Shown here piece after piece: positions 25,515 to 26,057 of a DNA stretch of 64,000 nucleotides. The position numbers and the translations under genes are program-made. A model generated the notes under the pieces. The model made no database searches. It was given only the letters and a program-made list of their open reading frames with translations, and was not told where the DNA came from. Origin of the DNA: Eledone cirrhosa (lineage: Eukaryota); NCBI GenBank assembly GCA_964016885.1, contig OZ024747.1, forward strand, positions 89,652,001 through 89,716,000. Direction: 5' to 3'. Numbering within the stretch: the first letter of the stretch is position 1; the number at the start of each line of letters is the position of its first letter.

Positions 25515-26057
25515 GTATTAAGTATACTATTTATGGTTATGTATGTAATAAAACCTTTTATGGTAATATATTTTTTTATACAACCCTAAATAGTGAAAGA
25601 TAGTCATTAATTACTATCCTATTATCAGTAAGATAAATAGTTCAATGTAATAACATCAGTTGTTTTACAGAGCAGTTATATAGAGATTACAATAATCAAA
25701 GTTCAGTTTAAGTCATTTATTTGCTTACAATTGTTTCCTCCAAACCGAGGTTTGGATTCTTCGGAGCAACTATTTACTGATCTATAAAATACTTGACCTC
25801 CTTTTCAACCCAAGAGACATATAAAACACAAGAGACATACAGTGGGGTGACATTCATGAATGTCATCCCACTGTTGATCAATATGCGCATATGTTTTGTA
25901 TGTCTCTTGTGTTTTATATGTCTCTTGGGTTGAAAAGGAGGTCAAGTATTTTATAGATCAGTAAATAGTTGCTCCGAAGAATCCAAACCTCGGTTTGGAG
26001 GAAACAATTGTAAGCAAATAAATGACTTAAACTGAACTTTGATTATTGTAATCTCTA
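25515..26057. mobile_element. Fold-back insert: tail plus 377-bp palindrome with an HHR in each arm
   Basis: Arms begin tagagattac (25681) and end gtaatctcta (26057); homolog at 57729-58100. Confidence 0.88.
25969..26017 (+). ncRNA. Variant hammerhead ribozyme (U4C core)
   Basis: ttgct-CCGAAGA-a-tccaaacc tc ggtttgga-g-GAAA-caattg-TA-agcaa; identical minus-strand copies at 25721-25769 and 57769-57817. Confidence 0.75.

Follow-up and report, generated by a model that had tools for sequence, protein, structure and literature searches.

The window analysed here, the entire stretch of 64,000 nt, contains three identical copies of a 49-nt motif of the type I hammerhead kind (Table 1). Each copy has the core CCGAAGA, in which the U4 of the CUGA turn is absent and a C stands in its place (hereafter C4), together with A10.1 and G11.1, a 5-bp stem I, the palindrome ACAATTGT, and the cleavage triplet GUA. 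Two of the copies lie in the arms of a head-to-head inverted pair of stubs, and the third lies in a separate stub. The arms are identical to each other at 160 of 162 compared letters and consequently represent one insertion event; the third stub shares 133 of 138 letters with the right arm and differs at 5. Thus, the "three copies" of the original prediction are indeed identical motifs, but as independent events they amount to two insertions only, the inverted pair and the older stub. The element sense of the left arm is on the minus strand, with a short TA run at its end, and all of the C4 stubs in the window have been inserted in (TA)n-type sequence. A transcript of either strand of the inverted pair is predicted to form one long hairpin, in which the probability of stem II is 0. 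Given this hairpin and the location of the arms on opposite strands, the copies in the window are probably by-products and inert. As a locus, this is a truncated insertion of the ordinary kind.

Table 1. Coordinates of the stubs, hammerhead motifs, and neighbouring features (window positions unless another location is given)
Feature	Position	Strand	Basis or detail
Left arm, 5'-truncated pseudo-LTR stub with ~170-nt one-sided tail	25513..25860	-	blastn to tandem unit 461-815, 93%
Right arm, inverted partner stub reaching the usual 3' end, then (TA)n	25853..26056	+	blastn, unit 461-646/651, 89% (takes in the rearranged junction)
Head-to-head stub junction with small local inverted rearrangement	25843..25895	.	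junction letters
Independent, older-type 5'-truncated stub, TA/TG microsatellite	57730..58109	-	86% to unit 240-646
Type I hammerhead motif, right arm	25969..26017	+	sequence and fold
Stem I strands, right-arm motif	25969-73/26013-17	+	
Core C3-A9, right-arm motif	25974-80	+	C4 at 25975
A10.1; stem II; G11.1; GAAA, right-arm motif	25981; 25982-99; 26000; 26001-04	+	
Palindromic stem III, right-arm motif	26004-11	+	predicted cleavage after 26012
Hypervariable positions 10.1-10.3 and 2.2	25981-25983 and 25972		variation among genome copies
Mirror hammerhead motif, left arm	25721..25769	-	C3 at 25764, C4 at 25763
Third hammerhead motif copy	57769..57817	-	C3 at 57812
ATAACTGCTC hairpin site	about 25630-25680	-	
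ATAACTGCTC hairpin sites, copy L031	L031:7242-7290 and 7409-7432		
Decayed related Penelope-like element	about 53040-57530		other insertion near 53925-54150
Canonical CUGAUGA hammerhead of decayed element	about 57463	+	
Damaged inverted hammerhead copy of decayed element	near 53050-53105	-	
Small type I hammerhead, other family	41535-41580	-	
Foldback stubs in (TA)n	25251-25365, 26127-26320, 52036-52273		unrelated repeat families
Array of five 1-kb repeats	G000:C1:154.826-154.831 Mb		

The third C4 stub is located directly behind a decayed, related Penelope-like element (PLE), which is interrupted by another insertion and carries a canonical CUGAUGA hammerhead and a damaged inverted copy of it. 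The window also contains a small type I hammerhead of another family, with a canonical core and a palindromic ACTAGT stem III, and foldback stubs of unrelated repeat families.

Apart from U4, the type I core is complete (C3, G5, A6, G8, A9, G12, A13, A14, A15.1, U16.1, and H17), and the three-helix junction with an open stem I is present, with a stem I of 4-5 bp and a stem II of 7 bp. Stem III is predicted to have 2 bp in the monomer and 8 bp in a dimer. The core, the 5-bp stem I, and the palindromic stem III that had been claimed for all three copies are borne out by the sequence. However, the claim of an 8-bp stem II holds for the helix and not for its length: folding gives 7 bp and a CUCG tetraloop, the eighth pair, which would force a 2-nt loop, has a probability of 0, and the 8-bp structure was rejected. 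The A/G combination at the base of stem II, where a 10.1-11.1 base pair is absent, is real, but it does not deserve the weight it had been given, being common in the Hydra clade and free among subfamilies. When positions 25660-26060 were compared with Rfam, none of the 20 matches up to an E value of 10 belonged to a hammerhead family; they were only of the microsatellite and hairpin miRNA types, which makes this comparison uninformative.

The parent of the motif was found from three same-strand matches 4697 bp apart, which are tandem units of an element. The 4697-bp unit contains an RT frame (YRDD) as well as a C-terminal GIY-YIG frame, beginning ~290 nt after the motif; RT and EN occupy two frames in the tandem copy and one frame in another copy, and no intact ORF was seen among the parent copies examined. 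In Pfam, the parent protein matches GIY-YIG with an E value of 0.0017, below the curated cut-off, and the RT part is without a match. Its homologues are of the PLE type and 30-44% identical, and the two with names are cephalopod proteins. The layout of EN+ PLEs is present, with tandem or partial-tandem pseudo-LTRs (pLTRs), an inverted truncated partner, and an optional tail, the copies ending at unit position 646 or about 815. After both of these alternative 3' ends comes, within a few letters, the same ATAACTGCTC, the start of a GCTC...GAGC hairpin. Furthermore, the parent protein carries RWR, DKT, CNCRSSRTC, CNLC, and CQH; the marks given for the Hydra clade are RW(K/R), DKT, a CxCX5C linker, CxxC, CxH, and insertion in (TA)n (PMC8557442). 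The motif is thus assigned to the pseudo-LTR of a Hydra-clade Penelope-like element as its hammerhead, the clade being read from these protein motifs and from the targets. A first guess, the Nematis clade, was dropped once the Hydra list was found to match the parent protein. A non-LTR retrozyme, consisting of short non-coding head-to-tail units, was also rejected because the copies in the window, whether inverted or solo, are stubs of an element that is coding. In addition, an array elsewhere in the genome consists of five head-to-tail 1-kb repeats, each with a C4 motif, a microsatellite, and an inverted tail. It looks like a DNA-level duplication of one insertion and its microsatellite; its same-strand motifs are near enough to dimerise if transcribed.

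Within the 3.0 Gb of genome that was scanned, an exact 22-mer search gave 1188 matches with C4, 10 with U4, and 0 for the reversed control. Such numbers lie far beyond chance, and the motif is consequently a variant rather than a canonical type I hammerhead. The change G5A, which represents decay of the same CpG on the opposite strand, has 16 exact matches. As U4 does not exceed this number, the U4 copies of this subfamily are explained by CpG decay, and their interpretation as an ancestral canonical subfamily was rejected for this subfamily. When the core was left free in the pattern, C4 was present in 99 of the 100 matches listed for this subfamily (1202 in all), and it was present at 30 of 30 loci picked by their 3' side only. 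In several insertions, one arm carries U4 and its partner carries C4. In contigs of four public runs, which come from one study and possibly from the source sample, no other letter is found at position 4 at the 5% level; no RNA run is among the runs listed with the motif.

C4 extends well beyond this subfamily. A looser pattern from which it was left out gave 3692 C4 matches, and core-free searches for subfamilies B and D, counted by eye, gave C4 in 97 of the 100 matches listed (247 in all) and in 99 of the 100 matches listed (799 in all), respectively, with U4 once in each. The proteins of subfamily B are 60-75% identical to those of this subfamily, and the pLTR majorities of the subfamilies are 50-90% identical. 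Subfamily B, whose core is CCGATGA, with C17 and U-A at 10.1/11.1, was first found by plain blastn with no core pattern; the others were discovered mostly with core-containing patterns. The original prediction of a family-level natural variant rather than decay of one copy therefore holds and even understated the case, and the contrary possibility, that most copies have CTGAAGA, was looked at and is false. Across all subfamilies, the raw counts are 428 U4 vs 196 G5A matches, of which about 82 and 87, respectively, of the first 100 listed are clade members by eye. Given this roughly twofold excess of U4 over G5A clade-wide and some insertions with U4 in both arms (loci L074 and L167), minor U4 sub-lineages may exist. 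A clade pattern gave 13,449 matches in all, 85 of the 100 listed belonging to the clade, and the number of C4 clade motif copies in this genome is estimated at roughly 7,000-11,000. C4 was likely derived within one lineage, because the decayed and more distant element in the window, whose RT and EN are 35-58% identical, has the canonical CUGAUGA.

The majorities of six subfamilies vary at N7 (A, U, or G) and at H17 (A or C), and C3, C4, G5, A6, G8, and A9 are constant; the flanks are invariant at 22/55 and 20/42 columns (40-48%). H17 is never G in these majorities or in 11 aligned copies, and G5, A6, G8, and A9 are kept in 96-100 of the 100 matches of the core-free lists. An apparent invariance of 17/17 core columns is largely built in, since the 3' core served as the search anchor, which set 11 of the 17 beforehand, and is given no weight; a subfamily whose core had decayed would escape such a search. 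The 10.1/11.1 combination in the sister subfamilies is C/A, C/C, C/U, or U-A. A compensation between C4 and A7 was considered and rejected, as N7 varies. In stem II, there is one double change from A-U to G-C and one G-U variant. A covariation analysis gave weak statistics: one pair is changed on both sides, and for five measures the observed value was reached by 64, 495, 103, 500, and 19 of 500 shuffles.

A mutation hot spot is located at the 5' foot of stem II. Positions 10.1-10.3 and 2.2 are hypervariable among the genome copies; 10.2 differs in 12 of the 100 matches listed for this subfamily and in more for subfamily D, core positions 3-9 differ in 0-4 of 100 listed, and the partner strand is nearly invariant. 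Between the arms of single insertions, the hypervariable sites differ in 5-8 of 35 pairs vs 0-1 at most neighbouring sites.

In a subfamily with diverged flanks, the palindrome has become ACAGCTGT (AAUU to AGCU) in 13 of the 100 matches listed, and ACAGTTGT intermediates make up another 5 of 100. The ACAGCTGT form, seen in 12 motifs at 10 loci, remains fully palindromic (-11.1 vs -6.4 kcal/mol). These patterns are suggestive of selection on the hammerhead fold, the rebuilt palindrome being its clearest sign. For two 49-mers, the predicted cofold minimum is the hammerhead dimer with swapped strands, which lies 7.8 kcal/mol lower than a pair of monomers, and such a dimer is the minimum in only two of the six subfamily majorities (A, as the 49-mer only, and A2). 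When the flanks are lengthened, the fold predicted as preferred in this subfamily is an off-pathway one in which C3-C4 pair with G12-G11.1 and the probability of stem I is about 0.03. In most subfamilies, stem I can be extended past an internal loop (CAUU/AAUG); a sub-lineage found at 16 of 30 loci has lost some 10 nt directly upstream of stem I, the extension strand among them, and is still widespread. Core-breaking changes present in both arms of an insertion also occur, namely G5U (locus L166), C3G pairs, and G5A pairs, so insertion does not depend on a working core in the pLTR that is copied.

Taken together, these results have led to a model, given a probability of roughly 0.6, in which a Hydra-clade pLTR hammerhead with C4 in several diverged subfamilies is likely a slow ribozyme whose folding is predicted to require a dimer. 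Its parent element, copy numbers, C4 consensus, and pattern of variation are observations; its mechanism would be as follows. In the RNA of a tandem element, two motifs would pair via the 8-nt palindrome, completing stem III, and the dimer would cut after GUA at a low rate and perhaps not unless the element's protein is present. The ends of the copies lie 44 or 213 nt downstream of the predicted cut site; therefore, any copy with a whole hammerhead came from RNA that was uncut there. Thus, a slow core is tolerated, perhaps even favoured. As C4 sits in a CpG, U4 revertants arise constantly. A further and more tentative proposal, which is possible but doubtful, is that C4 has been selected over U4 in a lineage-wide detuning, since rapid cleavage would sever the RNA just upstream of the start of reverse transcription.

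An alternative to slow cutting, regarded as rather unlikely, is that the motif no longer cuts at all and is kept as a folded RNA for protein binding, dimerisation, or template positioning, C4 having been fixed after catalysis ceased to matter. In model hammerheads, replacing U4 is harmful (PMC9901934, PMC3088659), PLE insertion in vitro is unimpaired by hammerhead mutants, and in Anolis there are no reads ending at the cut site (PMC11167929). Insertions that are core-dead in both arms do exist, and dimerisation alone could keep the palindrome. However, the variation falls on N7 and H17 with H17 never G, just as cleavage chemistry requires, and the near-constancy of G5, A6, G8, and A9 in the core-free lists also counts against this alternative. 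The reverse view, that C4 belongs to a fully compensated core which in its own context (N7, an open 10.1/11.1, an extended stem I) cuts at least as well as U4, is improbable. It would account for the scarcity of U4, which the CpG yields constantly and which nevertheless stands at 1 of 100 matches listed in each of three subfamilies, and the stem I extension of most subfamilies could give tertiary support; yet no partner change tracks C4, with three letters at N7 and five states at 10.1/11.1, and the sub-lineage at 16 of 30 loci has spread despite losing the upstream extension strand.

It is also conceivable, though very improbable, that a decayed motif simply rode on successful masters as a neutral founder effect and that its conservation is an artefact of pattern searches. 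The dominance of core-containing patterns in the discovery of the subfamilies and the lack of an intact ORF in the copies examined speak for such an effect. However, the six fixed 5' core letters are constant against flanks of which less than half the columns are invariant, the palindrome has undergone a double change, and subfamily B came to light without any core pattern. The preferred reading remains a conserved, probably slow, dimer-dependent ribozyme.

Nearly all PLEs have hammerheads, which show weak activity in vitro and which the sole element tested did not need for insertion. A lineage in which a core letter has changed and the fold has been kept through 25-40% protein divergence separates a need for the fold from a need for fast cutting, and the C4 lineage offers a one-letter experiment. 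Descriptors in which CUGANGA is fixed undercount PLE motifs. If detuning is true, the lineage would provide a natural wild-type/revertant pair for testing the purpose of PLE hammerheads, and surveys based on CUGANGA would be missing thousands of ribozymes per genome.

A C4 hammerhead in Penelope elements was not found in the literature searched, in which the coverage of earlier hammerhead surveys is incomplete; the accessible portions of PMC6765202, PMC6155905, and PMC3376415 contain nothing on position 4. Five metagenome pattern matches (GC 0.53-0.68) were treated as unrelated, and none folds as the C4 motif. The nearest known systems are the elements of the Hydra clade (Craig et al. 2021, PMC8557442), with which, as far as the accessible parts of that paper describe them, the parent element shares its protein motifs (RW(K/R), DKT, CxCX5C, CxxC, and CxH), (TA)n targets, the inverted truncated partner, the one-sided tail, and a type I hammerhead with a short self-complementary stem III. 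The base of stem II is non-Watson-Crick in 15 of the 26 published Hydra rows, as it is in the window motif, whereas all 26 rows have CTGA, which the descriptor demands, and the motif here has CCGA (PMC8557442, File S2). As the stem II mismatch and the short stem III are ordinary for the clade, only C4 is unusual here. The unit is 4.7 kb, whereas Hydra-clade units are generally under 3 kb, and the tail is about 170 nt rather than the 30-40 described for PLEs (PMC8557442).

The minimal hammerheads of PLEs (Cervera and de la Pena 2014, PMC4209133), as described in the accessible part of that work, likewise have a stem II of 7-8 bp, a stem I of 4-5 bp, a palindromic stem III, a predicted dimer, low expected activity, and opposite-strand pairs 100-700 bp apart. 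The window motif differs from them in its C4 core and in lacking the G10.1-C11.1 pair. In the supplement with 56 representatives, a term search gave two occurrences of CCGA, neither in a core. Among PLE hammerheads, U3-A8 has already been described as the core variant of an entire family (PMC4209133). In PAc Poseidon, an Anolis element (Frangieh et al. 2024, PMC11167929, from the accessible text), the hammerhead cut only with protein, the uncut RNA was the template, and the hammerhead was dispensable for insertion in vitro. Like the element described here, for which uncut RNA would likewise be the template, PAc Poseidon has two alternative copy ends downstream of the hammerhead. However, it belongs to another clade, and its hammerhead has been assayed; the one described here is known from sequence alone.

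The change itself has precedents. In a screen of a type III hammerhead, all single and double mutants of the CUGA turn had low activity, except for a C3/G8 swap (PMC9901934, in the portion seen), and a natural U4C viroid hammerhead (Ambros and Flores 1998, as cited in PMC3088659) is described as much slower in vitro and yet viable and infective in vivo. Thus, U4C is already known, and it is for C4 in a Penelope-like lineage that the literature searched gave no precedent: the viroid change is a variant of one viroid, whereas C4 here is the consensus across a lineage of retroelements, in several subfamilies and thousands of copies.
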